DNA from: an uncultured Acidobacteriota bacterium
Lineage (GTDB): Bacteria; Acidobacteriota; Terriglobia; Terriglobales; Acidobacteriaceae
Length of the DNA: 64,000 bases
Direction of reading: 5' to 3'
NCBI GenBank assembly: GCA_963838765.1
Contig: CAWISU010000076.1
Location: forward strand, 514 to 64,513
Position 1 is the first letter of the stretch. The number at the start of each line of letters is the position of its first letter. Of this stretch, positions 27,388 to 53,368 are shown in pieces. Under the pieces are notes generated by a model that did not search any database, was not told the DNA's origin, and was given only the letters and a program-made list of their open reading frames with translations. Both the position numbers and the translations under genes were made by a program.

Positions 27388-27815
27388 GTGGCGAAACAAG
27401 CAGCCGGTGACATGCTCTCCATCGATGGACGCGAAGTCCAGGTAACGCATCCGGACAAGCTGTACTTTTCATCGCAGACACAAATTTCGAAACTGGATCT
27501 GGTTCGCTACTACCTGTCTGTTGCGCCGAGCGCGCTGGCTGGGATTCAGGATCGTCCGATTGTTCTAAAGCGGTTCGTGAATGGCGACGAAGGAGAAGCG
27601 TTTTACCAGAAACGTGCGCCCGCACAAAGGCCCTCATGGCTCCGGACGGTCACGCTTTCCCTTCGGGGCGAACTGCGGAAGACATTGTAGTCGGTGATGC
27701 GGCTGGCCTTGCCTGGATTGTCAATCTTGGTTGTATCGAGCTATACCCGCATCCGGTGAGCTCGAATGATCGGGCTCTTATCGCATGCGCAGCTATTTGG
27801 GAGAACTGCAAGTAA
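27388..27815 (+). pseudogene. remnant of a LigD polymerase/primase (PrimPol) domain gene, -1 frame break and premature end
   Basis: The ORF reads LSIDGREVQVTHPDKLYFSSQTQISKLDLVRYYLSVAPSALAGIQDRPIVLKRFVNGDEGEAFYQKRAPAQRPSWLRTVT. It then continues in the other frame as FPSGRTAEDIVVGDAAGLAWIVNLGCIELYPHP, and similarity is lost at about 140 aa. No ligase or nuclease domains follow. Confidence 0.6.
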
Positions 27816-28632: not shown

Positions 28633-29847
28633 TCAGGGGGTGAGCTTGAACACGGTTCCGCAGCCCGAGAATCCGCAGCTGAGGTCGCCGCCGGCGCTGG
28701 TGGTGCCGTAGAGATTCCCCGCCTTATCCATGATCAAGCCTGCGATCGGATGAGCGCCGTCGGGTGAGTAGTTGAAGCTGTGCAGGATGGTCAGTTTGCT
28801 GGCGGTATCCAGCTTGAACACGGTTCCGTAGCCGGATGTGCCTCCGTAGAAAGTGGTGCCGTAGAAATTGCCAGCGGCGTCACGAATCAATCGAGAATAG
28901 GGATTCTCTCCATCTGGCATTCCGGCAAAACTGTGGAGCAGGGTCGGTTTGCCTTTGGCGGTCAGCTTGAAGACCGTGCCGTAGCCGCCGTTGGCGCCTC
29001 CATACTCGGTGGTGCCATAAAGATTTCCGGCGGCGTCCCGCAACAAACCAGCCAGTGGATTTACGCCGTCCGGTGTTCCGCTAAAGCTGTGCATCAGAGT
29101 CAGCTTGCCTTTCGCATCCAGTTTGAACACGGTTCCGAAACCACCGCCTGTGCCTCCGAATTGGGTCGTGCCATAAAAGTTTCCCGCTTTGTCTCGAAGC
29201 AAACCTGCGAAGGGATCTTCCCCGTCCGGAGTCCCTGCGAAACTATGCAGCAGGGTCAGCTTGCCGTTCGAATCCAGCTTGAATATGGTTCCGAAGCCGC
29301 CGTTAACGCCGCCATATTGCGTTGTACCGTAGAGATTGCCGGCTGCGTCCCGCACCAGGACTGAGCGAGGATCTTCGCCGTCCGGGGTTCCGGCGAAGCT
29401 GTGAAGTATGGTTTCCTTGCCACCGGGATGCAGCTTGAATACGGTTCCAAAGCCGCCTTGAGTGCCGCCGTACAGCGTCGTACCGTAAAAGTTCCCGGCC
29501 TTGTCGCGGGTCAAACCTGAATATGGATCTTCGGCATCGGGCGTACCCGCGAAGCTGAGCAGTACGGTTTCCTTGCCCTTGGTATTCAGTTTGAACACGG
29601 TTCCGAAGCCGCCCTTGTTGCCGCCGTATTGCGTGGTGCCATACAGGTTGCCTGCCGCGTCTTGAAACAAACTCGCGTCGGGCTGTTCCCCGTCGGCTGT
29701 GTTGGTGAAGGTGTAGAGCACGGTGAAAGTCTGTGCCTGGGCTGAACTTGCGGCGACGAGTGCCAATGCGAATAGGGTTGCCGCTGTCAGTAAGGCTCGT
29801 GCAGTTTGCGGATGTATCCTCGAAAACCGATTTGCTTTGTTTTTCAC
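28633..29847 (-). CDS. secreted tandem-repeat protein, Gloeo_Verruco ('GloVer') repeat type
   Basis: 404 aa. A signal peptide is followed by about 8 repeats of about 48 aa with the consensus LHSFAGTPDGEDP-x-GL-RD-AGN-YGTT-YGG-x-GGFGTVFKL. Confidence 0.8.
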   Translation of the reverse strand: MKNKANRFSRIHPQTARALLTAATLFALALVAASSAQAQTFTVLYTFTNTADGEQPDASLFQDAAGNLYGTTQYGGNKGGFGTVFKLNTKGKETVLLSFAGTPDAEDPYSGLTRDKAGNFYGTTLYGGTQGGFGTVFKLHPGGKETILHSFAGTPDGEDPRSVLVRDAAGNLYGTTQYGGVNGGFGTIFKLDSNGKLTLLHSFAGTPDGEDPFAGLLRDKAGNFYGTTQFGGTGGGFGTVFKLDAKGKLTLMHSFSGTPDGVNPLAGLLRDAAGNLYGTTEYGGANGGYGTVFKLTAKGKPTLLHSFAGMPDGENPYSRLIRDAAGNFYGTTFYGGTSGYGTVFKLDTASKLTILHSFNYSPDGAHPIAGLIMDKAGNLYGTTSAGGDLSCGFSGCGTVFKLTP

Positions 29848-29950: not shown

Positions 29951-30280
29951 CTAGCAGGGTTCTAACTTTCGGCAGAATCGTTTGATGAGGTCGCCCTGGT
30001 CGGGGAGCGCGCCGATGAACTCAAAACCGTGCAGGAAGCCCATGCGGTGGCGGACCACCGATCGGATCGCGAAGACCTCGGGAACGTCTGGGATGGAGAA
30101 TTCGAGAGTCACCATTTCTCCGGCGGCCAGCTCGCTGGTAATCACGGCGCCGAGGCCAGCCTCGGCAATCTCGAAGCAGCGGCCATGGATGCGGATGTAC
30201 CCGTCCTTCCCGAGCACCTTTACAATAATCGGTATCTCCGTACGATATCGGGCGTAACGTCGAGTGGAAGACTTGTGCAT
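29951..30280 (-). CDS. PilZ-domain protein
   Basis: 109 aa with a RRYARYR-type RxxxR motif near the N-terminus and the downstream D/N-x-S-xxG-like EIAEAGLGA element, on a small beta-barrel size. Confidence 0.7.
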   Translation of the reverse strand: MHKSSTRRYARYRTEIPIIVKVLGKDGYIRIHGRCFEIAEAGLGAVITSELAAGEMVTLEFSIPDVPEVFAIRSVVRHRMGFLHGFEFIGALPDQGDLIKRFCRKLEPC

Positions 30281-30556
30281 TCCCGCGAGCCTTATCGAAG
30301 CAGAGTGAGAGCTTTTCAGAGAATCCTCGTTATCCCGACAAGTAGAATAATGGATTGGGGGCGAGTCTGACAGTTACTTTGGAGAGTTCGGGTGAAATTG
30401 GCGGAAGAATTCCAGTTTTGAGAAGTGACTGTCAAGTTGGCAAGTAACTCGAAAGATGGTGACTGCGGACTTTTTTTATAAGGAAAGTTGACTTGACACT
30501 TGTATTTTTTGACAGTCGGGAGCACACTGGGCACACCGAACTAGAAGGGAGCGGGG

Positions 30557-30727
30557 ATGAATACAAAGATGTTGCGTAGGCTATGGTCGGATGATGAAGG
30601 CCAGGACATTGCCGAGTACGCTGTGATGTTGGCGGTGATTCTGGTGTTGGTGGTTGGCACCATCCGATTGATTGGGGGCAGTTCCAACAACGTGTTTTCT
30701 TCTGTGGCTAGTTCGATTGGCCAGTAG
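30557..30727 (+). CDS. Flp/Fap-family type IVb pilin (56 aa)
   Basis: Absent from the ORF track because it is under 60 aa. The product is MNTKMLRRLWSDDEGQDIAEYAVMLAVILVLVVGTIRLIGGSSNNVFSSVASSIGQ. It has the G-x-x-x-x-EY Flp processing motif plus a hydrophobic helix. The SD GAAGGGAGCGGGG lies upstream. Confidence 0.8.
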   Translation: MNTKMLRRLWSDDEGQDIAEYAVMLAVILVLVVGTIRLIGGSSNNVFSSVASSIGQ

Positions 30728-30760
30728 CTCCGGCGAAGCCGAACTTTGATTTCTGCGCGG

Positions 30761-30792
30761 AGCCAGACCGGTACGGTCTGGCTTGTTTTTTG
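30761..30792 (+). terminator. Rho-independent terminator after the flp gene
   Basis: Stem agccagaccg / cggtctggct (10 bp) with a 3-nt loop, followed by tgtttttt. Confidence 0.6.
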
Positions 30793-30914
30793 CGCATTCC
30801 AGTTTCTGCCTCTAACCATAAGACTTAGAGGGGGTTCCTGCCCCCCGTCGGGGGGAGATAATCTGCGGTTCGTTTTGCCTGGGAATGGGTTCCGCCTAGC
30901 CTCCCCCGGAAGTA

Positions 30915-31457
30915 ATGCCCCACGATGGCCTTCCTCTGGTATTATCTTTCGAACGGGGTCTCTGGCTGGATGGTATGGCAACCATGTTCATTCCGCATCC
31001 TAATCTCAGCGACGAAGTGAATGCCAACATCGTCCAGGCAGAAATCGAGGGTGGGGTCTCGCTGGGAGACTTGCCGCCTTCGACAGTGCTGGAGATCCAG
31101 ACGCAACACCATCGGTATACTGCCGTGTTCCTGGGCGAGAGCCAGGCGCTGATTTCGGGGCATCCGGAATATTGTCCGGAGCCAGTGCTGGTAGCGATTG
31201 CCGGCTCGACGTGGGGCGGATCGATGCTGAAGCTGCGCTACATCGGGCGCGGCATGCATTTGGAGTTTTGTCATCCTGAGTATCGCACTCCGATTGTTAC
31301 TTCTCGTATTCAAGAAGTGCGCGAGTGCATTCATCTTGATTTCGAGAAATCTTCCAGGGCGAACAATAATGCGCTGAGTTCTGCCGCGCCCACGCCCCCG
31401 GCATCCGCGCCCGCTCCTTCCATGCTGGCGCGTGGAACTTTCACGAAACCTTCGTAA
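30915..31457 (+). CDS. hypothetical protein (start probably the ATG at 30975, MATMFIPHP...)
   Basis: 180-aa ORF. The globular part (..[17 protein letters not shown]...[26 protein letters not shown]..) is followed by an Ala/Pro-rich tail. No motif was recognised. Confidence 0.45.
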
Positions 31458-31604
31458 GAGCTGGTTGCAAGATTTCGCGTATTTAGGTTCAGCACCTGGG
31501 CGAGTCTTCTCCTGTTGCGAGCTTCGTGCGTCCGGGCACGAGGCGCAAACAAAGCGCATTGCCACTTTTCCAGAATTGGTACCGAGTTCATTGTTCGTTT
31601 CTGG

Positions 31605-31730
31605 GTACCCCCCCTCCCCCCGGTTATCTCGCAAAATCTAGAAAACAAAAGATTTATTTTACCACTATGTGCTAAATCTTTGAGTTTAGAGGAGTTACGG
31701 GCAAAATCTAGAGAACATGGGAGTTATGGC
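31605..31730. repeat. dispersed repeat, copy A (C-tract element)
   Basis: The element starts with the tract ggtaccccccctcccccc. It then contains ..aaatctttgagtttagaggagttacgggcaaaatctagagaacatgggagttatgg, which aligns by eye at roughly 70 percent with 42916-43030. An internal near-duplicate gcaaaatctaga(a/g)aac occurs at 31631 and 31701. Confidence 0.55.
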
Positions 31731-31931
31731 GGTCCGTGTCGGCATCGGGAGTTCCTTTTTGGGACTCGGTTCTACACCCCACGCACCGAACTGCGGTTCT
31801 CAATGGCTCCGGCGTGGGATATGCAGCACGCACCAAGCTCCATTCATTGCCTGGTCAGATTGTCAAAGAGCTATTATCCTGGAGATAATATAGTTCGAAT
31901 TAGTATTGTCCTATTTGCAGTTTGCAGTCAA

Positions 31932-32234
31932 CTATAAAGTATTCGATTTGGATGGGTCGACCTCTTGGTAGGGAGCGCAAAGACGCCCCTTCCGCCAGCC
32001 CTCAAAATCCGCAAGGACTTCCTTCTCCGAAATGCCACGGCGCTTGATCTGGCGGGCGATTTCGCTGGTCAACATGGCAAACAGTTCGCGGGTCAATTCT
32101 CCCGGCAACGAATCCTTCTGCAAGGGAAAAAACACGCCCGCGAGCCTTCCCCGCCGCGTCACCAGAATCGGGTCTTTGGAGCGCAGCATTCCCGTAGCCT
32201 TGTCCCGAAATTCCCGCACCGTGCTGGTCTTCAT
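31932..32234 (-). CDS. Phd/YefM-type type II antitoxin (100 aa), no cognate toxin gene downstream
   Basis: Internal ATG of ORF 31932-32408 with AGGTGA 6 nt upstream. The product begins MKTSTVREFRDKATGMLRSKDPILVTRRGRLAGVFFPL, a Phd/YefM-like N-terminus. Confidence 0.6.
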   Translation of the reverse strand: MKTSTVREFRDKATGMLRSKDPILVTRRGRLAGVFFPLQKDSLPGELTRELFAMLTSEIARQIKRRGISEKEVLADFEGWRKGRLCAPYQEVDPSKSNTL

Positions 32235-32505
32235 GTGGTCACCTGTGTAACCATTATAAAACACTTGAACGGTGGCAGGACGGACCATTCTTTGGGCAAC
32301 CCCGGCGGGTGGCTTGTCTATCCGCCGTCCACATTGGGCGCGGTCAACCACGAGGCTCAGATCTGAAATTAGCGTACCGCCCTGTGTCTCCAAAAACCGG
32401 AGAAGCAAGGGTGGGTCGCCTCGTGAATAGGATCAGAAAGAACGAATGGGCCAACCCCCCGGACCTCTCGTCAATCATTTAGAATGAATAACTTGGGGGT
32501 GAGAC

Positions 32506-32829
32506 TTGATGCATACCTTATATTTGCACGCCCCATATGACAAGAGCCAGCAAGGGGGTGCCTTCTATAAGGACTTCTACACAATCTTTCAGAATGGCAT
32601 TGGCCCCGATTACGCGATCTACTCTGGCCTGATAGGACTGATCAATCCAGGAACAAGAGTGGTCGTGTTTGATCGCAGCAGGCAACTACAGGCGGAGGGT
32701 GTGGTCAGCCACTTGGTCCTCAAGCCCTTCAATCGAATTCAGCGTTTCGATGTCCACATCCTCAATTTAGCTAGGGTTCCCTACAGCAATCCCCCGGGCG
32801 TCAACAGATGCGGTGTTGAGGTTTTGTAA
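32506..32829 (+). CDS. hypothetical protein, 107 aa
   Basis: ORF only, with an A/T-rich codon usage unlike its neighbours. It is convergent with the 463-aa gene, with a 37-nt gap. No motif was recognised. Confidence 0.45.
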   Translation: MMHTLYLHAPYDKSQQGGAFYKDFYTIFQNGIGPDYAIYSGLIGLINPGTRVVVFDRSRQLQAEGVVSHLVLKPFNRIQRFDVHILNLARVPYSNPPGVNRCGVEVL

Positions 32830-32866
32830 ACGCCGTAATCGGTTACTCCGCGTTCCATGCATGCGC

Positions 32867-34258
32867 TCAGTCAGTCTCCGCAGGTGCATCGTATTCGATC
32901 CGGCCAGTTTTTTTGAGCAATTCTCGTGCTGCGCCCTTGGTCAGGACGCCTTTCTTTACAGCCATGACGATCTTGTGAAGTTCTACCGTGGAGAGTATTC
33001 CAATATTCTGTTCTACCGCTGTGTCGGCGATGTGGGCATCCGCACCGGTGTAAACACGGGGACGCCTTGATGGATGATTCTCGATGTCATAGTTCAGCAC
33101 AAGAAGCCCGGCGATCTCCATGCCCAAGGGCAGCACAAGGTCGCTCTGCCTTTTGTAAAGCGTCATCATCCTGCCCAAAATGTCGTGAAACTCTTTCACC
33201 TTGGGGTTCTTGTTTACCGTCCCGGTCACCTCCGTAATCGCAAGGAACTTTCCATCGCTCACCCAAAAATCCTCCTTCCGAATAGCACTTTTGATCTTTT
33301 CGTCGATGTCCTCTACTTTGAAATCCAAGTATTCCAAAGCAGCCTTTACAACGCCCGACAGCCTTTGCTGCGGTAGGAGCTTAGGGTCTTCCTTCGCAAC
33401 AAGCAGCGCTCTGACAAGAGCATTCGTTTCTCCCAGAGTTTTCGCCTCTTTCCGCTTAGCCTCAATAAAGCTCTTTGCTTCCGCAACTTTTTCCTCTATA
33501 GCCTTGTTTATCGCCGTTTCCTCGGGCAACAGGAACTCTTCGCCTTCGAGCCAGTCGGTCCTGCGCTTGTCAGGGAACAAGGCCGGGACCAATTCCTCTA
33601 AGCATTCGAGTATCTGGACAACCGCTTGAGCAGTGTTTTTCATTTGGGGCAGGATGATGTAGTTTGGGATTTTTTTCTCCTCATACGTTGTTCCGTATCC
33701 CATCACCCAGTCGTAGTTCCTCGTAGACAGGACCGGAACATTCCAGATTGACCCGTGCTGCTCAGGCTCGAAGAACTGACCGACCAAAGATACCTGCGCC
33801 TTCAGATTGGTAAGCGTTTGGTGTAACTCGTCGATCCTCCAAGTACGGTTCTCGACCTCGCGCAAGGCAGAGACATTCTCGTCAGCATCAATCAGCTTCA
33901 CGAACGGAACACCGCCTTGAATTAGGAAGTCAAATCCTGCCTCTTCTCCTATGAACGACACCCTTACACGGGGTGGCGTGTCGAAAGAAGACATCGTTTT
34001 GACAAACCCAGCCTCACTGAGACCATTACGCGGGCTTGAGAACTTTTTATTCAGTTCATTGGATATACGAGAGTTGTAGAAGAGGATGTCGTATTCGTAA
34101 AGAGGATGAGGCGTCACGTAAGGAAGGTATTTCGTGCTCTGATTCCCCACACCGACAAAACCTTGCTCCACGTTGTAGCCGGCCTTCGTGATTGTCTCCG
34201 CTTCCCTGTCGGTAAAATTGAGCAGAATTATTCGGTGGGCAGTCTCGTTTGTGGTCAA
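32867..34258 (-). CDS. hypothetical protein, 463 aa (N-terminal alpha/beta domain, central coiled-coil, C-terminal PD-(D/E)xK-like region)
   Basis: A long clean ORF with no comparable ORF in other frames. See the findings for the domain reasoning. No known family was recognised from the sequence alone. Confidence 0.8.
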   Translation of the reverse strand: MTTNETAHRIILLNFTDREAETITKAGYNVEQGFVGVGNQSTKYLPYVTPHPLYEYDILFYNSRISNELNKKFSSPRNGLSEAGFVKTMSSFDTPPRVRVSFIGEEAGFDFLIQGGVPFVKLIDADENVSALREVENRTWRIDELHQTLTNLKAQVSLVGQFFEPEQHGSIWNVPVLSTRNYDWVMGYGTTYEEKKIPNYIILPQMKNTAQAVVQILECLEELVPALFPDKRRTDWLEGEEFLLPEETAINKAIEEKVAEAKSFIEAKRKEAKTLGETNALVRALLVAKEDPKLLPQQRLSGVVKAALEYLDFKVEDIDEKIKSAIRKEDFWVSDGKFLAITEVTGTVNKNPKVKEFHDILGRMMTLYKRQSDLVLPLGMEIAGLLVLNYDIENHPSRRPRVYTGADAHIADTAVEQNIGILSTVELHKIVMAVKKGVLTKGAARELLKKTGRIEYDAPAETD

Positions 34259-34425
34259 CTGTGAATTCCTCTACTTGATTCCAGAAAGCAAGTCATTCAG
34301 CGGAAACGCGCGAGGCTCGGGTCGTCCCTGCCCTCTCAAGAATTGTACACATGTCGACGGTTAGGGAAACGACCAGGCTAGGGCGCCCTCCAATTTGCCT
34401 CAAGCGCTTCGCGTCTCTAGAATAG

Positions 34426-35949
<1,524 letters not shown>

Positions 35950-46833: not shown

Positions 46834-47289
46834 TCACCCTAAGCGCGGGGTTGGGCTGGGATCGTAGAGGTGAAAAACCTCACGGTAGGGCTCGACGGGA
46901 TAGCCATTCGCTTTCCAGGCTGCCAATCCACCTCTGAGGAATTTGATTCGGGAAAATTGCAGGGCAAGAGCTTGATGCAAAATCTCCCGGCTGGTTTTAT
47001 CGCCGGGACAGGTACAGTAGACGACCGTCTCTTTCTCTTTCGGAATCAGAGACGGCTTCTCGAGGACTTCTTTGGGGGGAATCCTCTGCGCACCCGGGAT
47101 GATCTCGGGATAGGCCAACAAGTCGAGGGGTTGGCGAACGTCAAGAAGAAGTACCTCCTGGTGGGAGTCAAACAGGGAGTGGAGTTCCTGCGCTGTGATG
47201 CTGTGCTGCTCTAGTTCATTCTGATCTCGCGTGCGCTTGATCCGTGCGAAGATCAGCAGGCACAGAACCCCGAGGCAAATTGCAGCCAA
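46834..47289 (-). CDS. membrane-anchored rhodanese-domain sulfurtransferase
   Basis: N-terminal TM segment (MAAICLGVLCLLIFA), a rhodanese fold with the active-site loop VVYCTCPGDKTSR, and a C-terminal LRGGLAAWKANGYP. Confidence 0.8.
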   Translation of the reverse strand: MAAICLGVLCLLIFARIKRTRDQNELEQHSITAQELHSLFDSHQEVLLLDVRQPLDLLAYPEIIPGAQRIPPKEVLEKPSLIPKEKETVVYCTCPGDKTSREILHQALALQFSRIKFLRGGLAAWKANGYPVEPYREVFHLYDPSPTPRLG

Positions 47290-52104: not shown

Positions 52105-53368
52105 CTAAGGCGTGGCGTGAAACAGCGTTCCGAAACTTGCGAATCCGCCGAGCATCATGCTGCCATAGAGATCGTCATGCGAACCTAAAGTCACGCCCGT
52201 CGGAAAAAATCCATCTGTGTTTCGTCCCCCCGTCTGCTCATCGAAATCGTAGAGGTCGGTATACTTCCCCCTCGTGTCGATTCTGAACAAGCATCCCGTA
52301 TTGTGAGCGCCGTCGAATTTTTGGGCGCCATACAAGTTGCCTTTCGAGTCCCTCACCAGGAGGTTGGCAAAGAACGAAGAACGGGTGATCGGCGGAGTAA
52401 AGGTGAACAGCACGCTGAAAGCGCCAGTCTTGGTGTCGACCTTGAAAATGGTTCCGTAGCCATCGGGGCTGCCGTGGTGATCTCCGCCCCCTGATGCAAT
52501 GCCATAGAGGTTGTCTTCCGAGTCGATAATCACACCCAGAGGGCCGGCGCCGTCTTTGTGGTTGCTGAACGTGTGCAGTACGGTGTACTTGCCGTGGACA
52601 TCCACTTTGAAGATGGTTCCGCAGCCGGGGGCATAATTATTACGGTCGCCCACGGCCCGGCACGCGCGGATGCCGCCAAACATAGCAGCGCCGTACAGGT
52701 TGCCTTTACTATCCCGCACCAGGCCGCTTTCTGGATACATTCCATCCGTTCCCTTAAAGGTGTGGATTGTCGTGAACTTGCCGTTTGGGGTCATCTTAAA
52801 CAGGGTTCCGCAGCCCAACCCGTGATAGTCCCAACCGCAATTGGGTGTGCCTCCGTAGGGAACCATGCCATAGACGTTGCCTTTCGCGTCCAAGGCGACA
52901 GGGGAATCTAAGGAGCCGAAATTGACGCCGGCCGAAGGGGCGTAGGATGTCTCCTGGCCTCCCGGAGTAAGCTTGTATACCACCGACAAGCCAAAGAAGC
53001 CGCTGCCCTGAGTCGTCCCATAGAGGTTGCCACTAGCGTCCCGAACCAAGGCCGGCGATCGGATAGACGCCATTGTTCCCGGCAGTGAAGTCGTAGAGAT
53101 CTTTGAGCTCGCCAGCGCGGTTGACCTTGAACACGTACCCGCAACCGAAATCACAGAGGCTGCTACCACCAGCTTCGGCTGCGCCATACAAATTGCCTTC
53201 CGCGTCCCGGATCAGCGGAGTAGGATACACGCCATCTGCTGAACCGGTGAACGTATGCAGAACCGTGTAGTGGTATTGCGCATTCGCCGGCAGGGCGGCG
53301 AGTACCGTCAACAACAACGTGACGAATGCGACACGATAAAAAGTGCTGCGGCATCTCTTGCTTAGCAT
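52105..53368 (-). pseudogene. second GloVer tandem-repeat secreted protein, +1 frame break near 53040-53060
   Basis: The start is the complement of 53366-53368, with the SD GAGGGA upstream. The product begins MLSKRCRSTFYRVAFVTLLLTVLAALPANA plus the first repeats and ends ...VYPIAGLGSGR*. The +1 frame continues VRDASGNLYGTTQGSGFFGLSVVYKL... as ORF 52105-53187. Confidence 0.75.

Follow-up and report, generated by a model that had tools for sequence, protein, structure and literature searches.

What does a gene do that stands alone in a bacterial chromosome and encodes a protein no database can name? The gene in question lies in a 64,000-nucleotide stretch of DNA from an uncultured Acidobacteriota bacterium (GTDB lineage Terriglobia; Terriglobales; Acidobacteriaceae; NCBI GenBank assembly GCA_963838765.1, contig CAWISU010000076.1, positions 514 to 64,513 of the forward strand), which we call the window throughout. 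A model that was given only the letters of the window and a list of its open reading frames (ORFs) had proposed that this gene encodes a receiver-like domain, a charged middle segment and a C-terminal module resembling restriction endonucleases; we refer to that reading as the original prediction. Our best explanation, to which we assign a probability of about 0.5, is that this is a mobile, stand-alone gene for a metal-dependent DNA endonuclease from an uncharacterized superfamily, the enzyme being gated by a sensor domain and dependent on dimerization, with a putative role in defense.

A constrained gene in an unannotated superfamily

The ORF of 463 residues lies exactly where the original prediction had placed it, and every peptide string quoted there is found in its translation (Table 1). 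A homolog search returned 102 clusters, mostly full length and 31-89% identical to the window protein, all of them labeled 'hypothetical' and none with a precomputed Pfam domain; the close clusters, about 100, belong to Acidobacteriota. In an alignment of 67 close homologs (alignment A1), 29 columns are invariant. Measured against its two closest orthologs, both about 80% identical, the whole gene has a ratio of nonsynonymous to synonymous substitution rates (dN/dS) of 0.12 (locus L008) and 0.10 (locus L001), and the C-terminal domain described below is the most constrained of three segments, with a dN/dS of 0.055-0.066. The junction residues are conserved far beyond the close homologs, with P204 present in 92 of 94 distant representatives and W236 in all 94. 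Junction residues included, the architecture as a whole is conserved throughout the superfamily, and the purifying selection on it is strong.

The extent of that superfamily emerged from an exhaustive profile search covering 1.84 billion representatives, which collected 1150 proteins at E ≤1e-3 and 567 at E ≤1e-10. The window protein itself found no match at E ≤1 in Pfam, NCBIfam or PADLOC and none at E ≤0.01 in PHROGs, and no Pfam or NCBIfam family could be assigned to 40 distant relatives. Sequence-profile searches of the PDB with both of our alignments returned, at E ≤10, just insignificant coiled-coil noise. RefSeq labels the plasmid-borne relatives 'hypothetical protein'. A description of the family was not found in the literature under its accessions or under terms for its architecture, and a paper on BREX names FokI solely in connection with the DNA-binding domains of BrxA. 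The protein belongs to a superfamily that is both unannotated and unnamed.

The C-terminal domain is predicted to have a FokI-type nuclease fold

An AlphaFold2 model built from A1 has a mean predicted local distance difference test score (pLDDT) of 90. The three-part architecture of the original prediction is recovered in this model, with the boundaries of the N-terminal and middle parts corrected. When the PDB was searched with the C-terminal domain by Foldseek, the best match was FokI (2fok; E 1.3e-4, probability 1.0, 192 columns, root-mean-square deviation (rmsd) 4.2 A), and the nickase N.BspD6I and the small subunit of R.BspD6I were also matched with a probability of 1.0. Weaker matches were to further PD-(D/E)xK nucleases, namely Can2, Cdn1, R2 endonuclease, LmuA, McrC and SduA (E 0.02-0.12 for Can2, Cdn1, LmuA and SduA), and in a viral structure library the domain matched restriction-endonuclease/Mrr-like proteins.

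Within the modeled domain, helices at residues 300-310 and 354-369 and strands at 314-316, 331-335, 338-346 and 381-389 belong to an alpha-beta(D)-beta(ExK)-alpha-beta-alpha-beta order, which FokI, N.BspD6I and R.BspD6I share, as they share the fold, and the positions of D...(D/E)-x-K fall in register. In PD-(D/E)xK enzymes an alpha-beta-beta-beta-alpha-beta core bears a conserved acidic residue where core strand 2 begins and (D/E)-x-K in core strand 3; the modeled domain has this core. This is the succession of helix, D-strand, E-x-(K) strand and hydrophobic strand that had been read from the sequence, exactly as stated, with Thr345 at the position of the lysine. Of the 22 conserved basic residues of the protein, 16 lie in this domain. 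The core of the original prediction, a restriction-endonuclease fold with threonine in place of lysine, survived both tests that had been set beforehand to refute it: the structure comparison returned the nucleases just named, and the two acidic residues singled out, D330 and E343, are invariant in the 67 close homologs and present in 93 and 92, respectively, of the 94 distant representatives. On the strength of the model, we consider it very probable that the C-terminal domain has a nuclease fold.

A low-stringency hhalign alignment to the FokI cleavage domain, whose query sequence agreed exactly with 1FOK and 2FOK, served to set the residue register only; it runs collinearly through 164 columns, in keeping with the order in which the secondary-structure elements follow one another. 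In this register R-K-E329-D330 falls on R-K-P-D450 of FokI, E343 on D467 and position 345 on K469, and toward the C-terminus GILSTVELHKIVMAVKKGVLTKGAARELLKKTGRIEY falls on AVLSVEELLIGGEMIKAGTLTLEEVRRKFNNGEINF of FokI. The C-terminal helices are similar, reading 'LSVEEL...GTLTLEEVR' in FokI and 'LSTVEL...G.LT...AR' in the window protein. The two proteins differ in much else. The window protein gave no match to Pfam Endonuc-FokI_C at E ≤1, has neither a helix-turn-helix (HTH) or winged-helix recognition domain nor a cognate methyltransferase, carries threonine for the D-x-K lysine (threonine or serine in its clade) together with a new lysine at 353, and has its nuclease domain fused to a domain resembling amidotransferases. 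It has a predicted cleavage module of the FokI type and does not belong to the FokI family, or to a type IIS system, by sequence or architecture.

The N-terminal domain remotely resembles amidotransferases and lacks their triad

Modeled alone, the N-terminal domain reached a pLDDT of 92 and a predicted template-modeling score (pTM) of 0.91. In Foldseek its top eight PDB matches, remote ones, were all of the class-I glutamine-amidotransferase type (E 5e-4 to 2.6e-2, probability 0.80-0.99), and matches included lin1909 (3fij), the glutamine-amidotransferase (GATase) domain of GMP synthase, MsGATase, Pdx2 and CTP synthase. Template-modeling scores over the eight were 0.36-0.48 with an rmsd of 8-10 A, and the named top matches, at E 5e-4 to 1e-2, scored 0.41-0.48. 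By eye, a hydrophobic strand of the domain followed by Y-D-I-L-F-Y-N-S resembles the GATase strand D-G-I-I-L-S-G-G. Flavodoxins and receiver domains ranked far below the amidotransferases, with receiver structures below 20th place at probabilities of at most 0.13, and the protein has no Pfam Response_reg match; the receiver or Rossmann-type domain that had been proposed for residues 1-110 gives way to a domain spanning residues 1-232, where a CheY-like receiver with its phospho-acceptor Asp would take up about 120. The fold search returned no CARF or SAVED structure.

Class-I glutamine amidotransferases carry a Cys-His-Glu triad, with the nucleophile elbow after strand 4. Residues 1-232 contain no cysteine conserved at ≥60% and no conserved His-Glu pair; without a conserved cysteine there is no triad, which rules the domain out as an amidotransferase. 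Its invariant residues are instead L12, N14, F15, G27, G33, G36, P50, P52, Y56, F102, Y188, G189, Y200, L203, P204 and P225. The domain is net acidic (family mean charge -3.3) and has just 4 conserved basic residues, which argues against DNA recognition.

This last point bears on another explanation, under which the protein would be a restriction enzyme proper, type IIS-like or else type IV and modification-dependent, with an N-terminal domain that reads a sequence or a modified base and a host whose own DNA lacks the target or is shielded by an unlinked methyltransferase. Such an enzyme could well have a FokI-type catalytic domain, a D12-class methyltransferase gene does lie 1.7 kb upstream of the homolog at locus L016, and modular fusions of a reader to a nuclease, with no methyltransferase next to them, form an established class (PMC6765204; PMC12191111). 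We nevertheless think it unlikely, given the acidic N-terminal domain with its few conserved basic residues and a fold that is amidotransferase-like rather than that of an HTH, winged-helix, PUA, SRA or EndoIII reader. In addition, no methyltransferase adjoins the gene in the window or in the sampled loci, the distant D12 gene of L016 being the sole one seen.

The N-terminal domain is joined to the nuclease domain by a connector that holds W236 and a long amphipathic helix, followed by a short helix at residues 280-287 (DSSP on the model). The original prediction had described residues of about 235-300 as charged and heptad-like. In the model this segment is the long amphipathic helix and the short one, and the coiled coil that a heptad would imply has no specific support, as the hydrophobic periodicity of the helix is 3.5-3.6 with nearly zero power at period 7; a periodicity of 3.5-3.6 does not tell a coiled coil apart from an ordinary amphipathic helix.

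Longer relatives, of 480-640 aa, overlap the window protein only at positions 195-455 in a hidden Markov model alignment. Compared directly by hhalign, their N-termini match the N-terminal domain of the window protein with a probability of 97% (E ~1e-10), which indicates that they bear a divergent, insertion-bearing version of the same domain; this homology rules out a different N-terminal domain in them. Three proteins of the Lys clade defined below (P0217, P0218 and P0222; 608-641 aa) are extended at the C-terminus by a segment that weakly matches EF-Tu domain 2 (E 2e-4 to 2e-2, under the Pfam cut-off) and may be an added beta-barrel module.

A catalytic lysine may have been relocated in two lineages

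In A1, whose members go down to 31% identity, none of the acidic residues of the predicted active site (E329, D330 and E343) varies. Among the distant representatives E329 is kept in 88 of 94, next to the near-invariance of D330 and E343 given above, and N389 (93/94), R399 (93/94) and D319 (87/94) are conserved as well. Position 345 is lysine in 73 of these 94, so the superfamily has a canonical E-D...E-x-K motif and the 'EVT' of the window protein is a substitution specific to its clade. We call proteins with the substitution the Thr clade and those with Lys345 the Lys clade.

The substitution does not come by itself. Across 178 aligned proteins, 93 of the 95 with threonine or serine at 345 have lysine or arginine at 353, compared with 18 of the 74 with Lys345. 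In a neighbor-joining tree the combination of Thr345 with K/R353 appears in two separate places, one being the large Acidobacteriota-type clade and the other a small clade (P0174, P0176, P0178, P0181, P0199 and P0202) that branches within the Lys345 proteins; as two events are few, the covariation of 345 and 353 is suggestive and no proof. K353 opens the helix that follows the catalytic strand, and this helix carries further charged residues specific to the clade (K355, E356 and R363). It begins at the point aligned with I479 of FokI, where we take helix alpha-4 of FokI, part of its dimer interface (D483, R487), to start. From the aligned sequences, K353 is a candidate for a relocated catalytic lysine, a dimer-interface lysine or a DNA contact, acting in cis or in trans.

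In classical PD-(D/E)xK enzymes, loss of the E-x-K lysine usually abolishes cleavage, and the lysine is replaced by Thr, Ser, Ala or Asn throughout the clade. The nuclease domain of these proteins could accordingly be catalytically dead and retained for DNA binding or scaffolding. Several observations make a pseudo-nuclease improbable. The three acidic residues have not drifted even at 31% identity, dN/dS is lowest in the nuclease domain, which renders a decaying active site unlikely, and the loss of Lys345 is paired with the gain of K353 in two separate lineages. Moreover, active relatives with a residue other than lysine at this position exist, among them BamHI (Glu) and BglII (Gln). Judged from sequence conservation, the protein is probably an active nuclease.

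Homologs are patchily distributed and lack constant neighbors

Members of the Thr clade occur in at least six GTDB species representatives, all of them Terriglobia (Acidobacteriota), a number that is a lower bound because the scan used clade-specific peptide patterns. None was found in the viral contigs of IMG/VR. Lys-clade relatives lie on plasmids of Klebsiella, Serratia, Pantoea and Synechocystis, one of them beside a RelE/ParE-NadS pair, and another is on an unannotated 7.5-kb 'Bacteriophage sp.' contig. On an IncFIA plasmid of Klebsiella pneumoniae (NZ_CP095134.1 35415-37106; L023 6938-8629), the gene for the 563-aa protein WP_016946333.1 has IS1 transposase genes on both sides, an arrangement suggestive of a composite-transposon-like unit. 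The relative at L019/L020 lies next to genes for a tyrosine integrase and an AAA_13 protein. A megablast search of complete E. coli genomes with two Klebsiella plasmid genes as queries found no relative.

Neighborhoods in the Thr clade are varied. A PIN toxin gene lies directly upstream of the homolog at L008, and PhdYefM with PIN directly upstream at L017; a PDDEXK_5 gene and an Unstab_antitox gene are among the neighbors at L001, a T5orf172 gene at L011 and an IS200-like transposase gene at L013. At L016 the surrounding stretch is prophage-like, with an S24 repressor, the D12 methyltransferase, a GH108 lysin and an 806-aa AAA_16 protein. In the window, the gene sits between a divergent IMPDH gene and a convergent ORF of 107 aa (orf107). 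When six window neighbors were compared by tblastn with all other nuclease loci, none recurred, even beside the 80%-identical orthologs. A conserved partner gene was considered and rejected, the small convergent 3' ORFs of L001 and L006 being unrelated to each other and to orf107. Across the loci examined no immunity gene, methyltransferase or signal-generating enzyme is consistently linked to the nuclease gene, and no cyclase gene neighbors it. The gene is stand-alone, patchy in its distribution and horizontally mobile.

The base composition of the window sets the same gene apart. The nuclease gene and orf107 each have a GC content of 0.503, against 0.54-0.62 in all neighboring genes. A search for flanking direct repeats or att sites around this low-GC patch gave just short matches of doubtful meaning, and a scan for promoters and terminators gave counts no higher than the chance level. 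A 19-nt inverted repeat lies within the nuclease coding region (33164-33182 / 33641-33659), its arms 95% complementary and 458 nt apart; it may be due to chance. Two homologous loci hold disrupted copies: that at L009 (8001-9390) is frame-disrupted, with 20 stops in a simple reading frame, and that at L013 (8001-9380), beside the IS200-like gene, is broken into two ORFs (271 aa and 129 aa). These are either pseudogenes or indel errors of long-read metagenome-assembled genomes.

Mobility of this kind raises the possibility that the gene serves the elements that carry it, through competition between elements, post-segregational killing or homing. Plasmid relatives between IS1 copies or by toxin-antitoxin genes, others adjoining an integrase or IS200-like gene, and the copy on the phage-labeled contig all speak for such a service. 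We hold it to be decidedly improbable nonetheless, as no antidote or immunity partner is conserved, viral contigs hold no Thr-clade member, and many copies are chromosomal, in housekeeping surroundings where no element boundaries are visible. That the gene is a housekeeping repair or recombination nuclease of Acidobacteriota, as its purifying selection and its place among chromosomal genes (IMPDH, hydrolases) might suggest, is very improbable in view of the mere six species representatives (again a lower bound), neighbors that differ per lineage, atypical GC, the disrupted-looking copies of L009 and L013 and plasmid relatives in unrelated phyla.

The convergent 106-residue gene family and other features of the window

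The family of orf107, a conserved and unannotated family of 106 aa, comprises 29 homologous clusters, with copies at L024 5001-5321, L028 615-935, L029 4142-4462 and L031 144-464. A 75%-identical copy occurs in a related Acidobacteriaceae genome, whose rhodanese is 80% identical to that at window positions 46837-47283. There it is again convergent with its neighbor, a complete two-gene Pycsar system (L024 5429-6646, minus strand; also L025 and L026), with matches to the PycC cyclase (PADLOC, E 9e-84), a 2TM effector model (E 1.7e-55) and the PycTM model (E 2.5e-32). At L029/L031 the orf107 relative adjoins a protein of 327-357 aa with a weak HNH_5 match, and at L028/L030 uncharacterized genes stand beside it. 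Similarity at the DNA level between these places is confined to the 106-residue coding region. Homologs of orf107 are absent from every other nuclease locus, which means that orf107 is no dedicated partner of the nuclease. The 106-residue gene marks a position at which the defense-type cargo differs between genomes, an anecdotal case of 'guilt by position' for defense; it may be the mark of a hotspot for defense cargo, or a shared accessory or regulator gene.

Near the 106-residue gene lies a non-coding stretch of 163 nt (window 31568-31730) that is 82% identical to stretches on three related contigs (L024 7815-7973, L025 6269-6427 and L026 7815-7972). It is close to the 106-residue gene in each, inverted and on the opposite side in L024-L026 relative to the window. 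Within the window copy lie two direct repeats of 27 nt, at 31631-31657 and 31701-31727 (chance expectation 0.04), and Rfam matched no family in window positions 30200-34500. The stretch may encode a small RNA, have a regulatory role or be a miniature mobile element.

Three further features were noted. Further downstream of the nuclease gene, an ORF at 31932-32408 on the minus strand has a C-terminal 100 residues (MKTSTVREFRDK...) that are weakly Phd/YefM-like (Pfam E 0.18, under the cut-off), and no toxin gene is evident beside it. A 404-aa secreted-looking protein (28633-29847, minus strand) has about 8 tandem repeats ending in 'GGFGTVFKL' and is 42-48% identical to a 503-aa protein of L024, with a second copy-like region at 52195-53290. 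A 100-aa ORF at 27388-27690 on the plus strand (…VTHPDKLYFSSQTQISKLDLVRYYLSVAP…FYQKRAP…) stops early and may be a gene fragment, its sequence presumably resembling the N-terminal end of a LigD polymerase/primase domain.

Table 1. Positions in the window of the nuclease gene, its domains and predicted active-site residues, and the convergent gene.
Feature	Position	Strand	Basis and remarks
Complete gene, 463-aa two-domain protein	32867-34258	minus	ORF list; TTG start 34256-34258, stop codon within span
GAGGAA, Shine-Dalgarno-like	34266-34271	minus	Sequence reading; 7 nt 5' of the TTG start
N-terminal alpha/beta domain, residues 1-232	33563-34258	minus	AlphaFold2 and Foldseek; predicted class-I glutamine-amidotransferase-like (flavodoxin-like) fold, triad-less
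Inter-domain connector, residues 233-295	33374-33562	minus	DSSP on model; contains W236 and two helices
Long amphipathic helix, residues 245-278 (34 residues)	33425-33526	minus	DSSP on model
C-terminal PD-(D/E)xK domain, residues 296-456, predicted FokI cleavage-domain type	32891-33373	minus	Foldseek on AlphaFold2 model
E329-D330, first acidic motif ('PD' equivalent)	33269-33274	minus	Aligns with FokI P-D450; invariant in A1
E343-V344-T345, (D/E)xK strand with Thr for Lys	33224-33232	minus	Aligns with FokI D467-T-K469
K353, clade-specific Lys opening the helix after the catalytic strand	33200-33202	minus	Aligns with FokI I479
orf107, convergent 107-aa ORF	32506-32829	plus	GC 0.503; conserved unannotated 106-aa family

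Discussion

We propose that the window protein would act as a Mg2+-dependent endonuclease with one catalytic centre per chain, as in FokI. With a single centre per chain, a dimer or oligomer would be needed to cut both strands, and by analogy with FokI dimer-dependent double-strand cutting is to be expected. The helix that starts at K353, as the presumed counterpart of the dimer-interface helix of FokI, would be the likely pairing surface, and K353 may complete the active site in cis or act across the interface. The N-terminal domain may be a dead enzyme put to use as a sensor or gate for a small molecule or protein, coupled to the nuclease through W236 and the long helix, so that the nuclease would stay off until a trigger arrives. 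As no methyltransferase accompanies the gene, such gating, or a restriction to foreign substrates, would have to protect the cell's own DNA.

Defense against phages or other mobile elements by a single gene, for which the original prediction had also named abortive infection, fits the genomic contexts, and we see about an even chance that this is the role. The signs in its favor are indirect: a patchy distribution, neighbors of the mobile and toxin-antitoxin kinds, and the place beside the 106-residue gene that Pycsar occupies in a related genome. A number of findings weigh against a gated defense nuclease. In PADLOC-DB v2.0.0 the window protein matches no component model, and the sole match among 10 distant relatives is to GajA, at a non-significant E of 0.03. 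The full-length model has a pTM of 0.55, which leaves its domains well defined and their mutual orientation undefined. The fold match of the N-terminal domain is remote, with template-modeling scores of 0.30-0.48 (below 0.5) and an rmsd of 8-12 A. Sequence-profile similarity to the FokI cleavage domain is non-significant (hhalign E 0.17 and 0.034, probability <2%), and the canonical catalytic lysine is missing, with threonine or serine at 345 in the clade. Finally, five Thr-clade loci (L002-L005 and L010) and the Lys-clade locus L014 are plain housekeeping neighborhoods, and the signs taken from genomic context are anecdotal.

Fusions of a sensor to a nuclease are known from single-gene systems. 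The END nucleases (END-PaCF1) are one of these: they work in defense with no methyltransferase, and their sensor is an inactivated enzyme domain fused to the nuclease (PMC12191111). Like them, the window protein combines a predicted stand-alone nuclease with a putatively inactivated enzyme domain and has neither a conserved neighbor nor a methyltransferase. The two are not homologous: the END nuclease is of the phospholipase D (PLD) type (HxK) and N-terminal, whereas that of the window protein is PD-(D/E)xK and C-terminal, and the END sensor has an inactive EndoIII/Ogg1 DNA-glycosylase fold, whereas the putative sensor here is acidic and amidotransferase-like. A sensor joined to an effector of the restriction-endonuclease fold is likewise the layout of Can2/Card1, Cap4, Shedu SduA and Lamassu LmuA. 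The window protein matches none of these families in PADLOC or Pfam, and it differs from Can2/Card1 and Cap4 in that its N-terminal domain is neither CARF nor SAVED and no cyclase or other signal-generating partner accompanies it. Single-gene systems that join a sensor to a nuclease were already known; what sets the window protein apart is that its FokI-like nuclease is joined to an amidotransferase-like domain, that its unannotated superfamily is large and that the lysine seems to have moved.

Put together in their strongest form, these proposals would make the protein the first of a widespread, still nameless class of immune nucleases that work as single proteins, in which an inactivated amidotransferase-like sensor of an infection-derived metabolite or protein licenses a FokI-type nuclease, and in which the catalytic lysine, moved in two lineages to the dimer-interface helix, may act in trans and so make catalysis itself dependent on the dimer. 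All of this at once is quite unlikely to be right. Representatives of such a class would be found in Acidobacteriota, on plasmids of Enterobacterales and of cyanobacteria, and in other metagenome-derived lineages.

If the protein is indeed a nuclease of defense, at least 1150 clusters at 50% identity that are now only 'hypothetical protein' would join the single-gene immune systems, and they would offer a second case, the END nucleases being the first, in which infection is sensed by a metabolic or repair enzyme domain that has lost its activity. The exchange of Lys345 for Lys353 in two lineages would then be a natural experiment in the plasticity of PD-(D/E)xK active sites. The genome-editing tools known as zinc-finger nucleases (ZFN) and transcription activator-like effector nucleases (TALEN) are built on FokI-type cleavage domains, and in that setting a compact relative with different gating and dimerization could have practical use. 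For the soil Acidobacteriota themselves, the gene would be among the few of a defense type that have been described.

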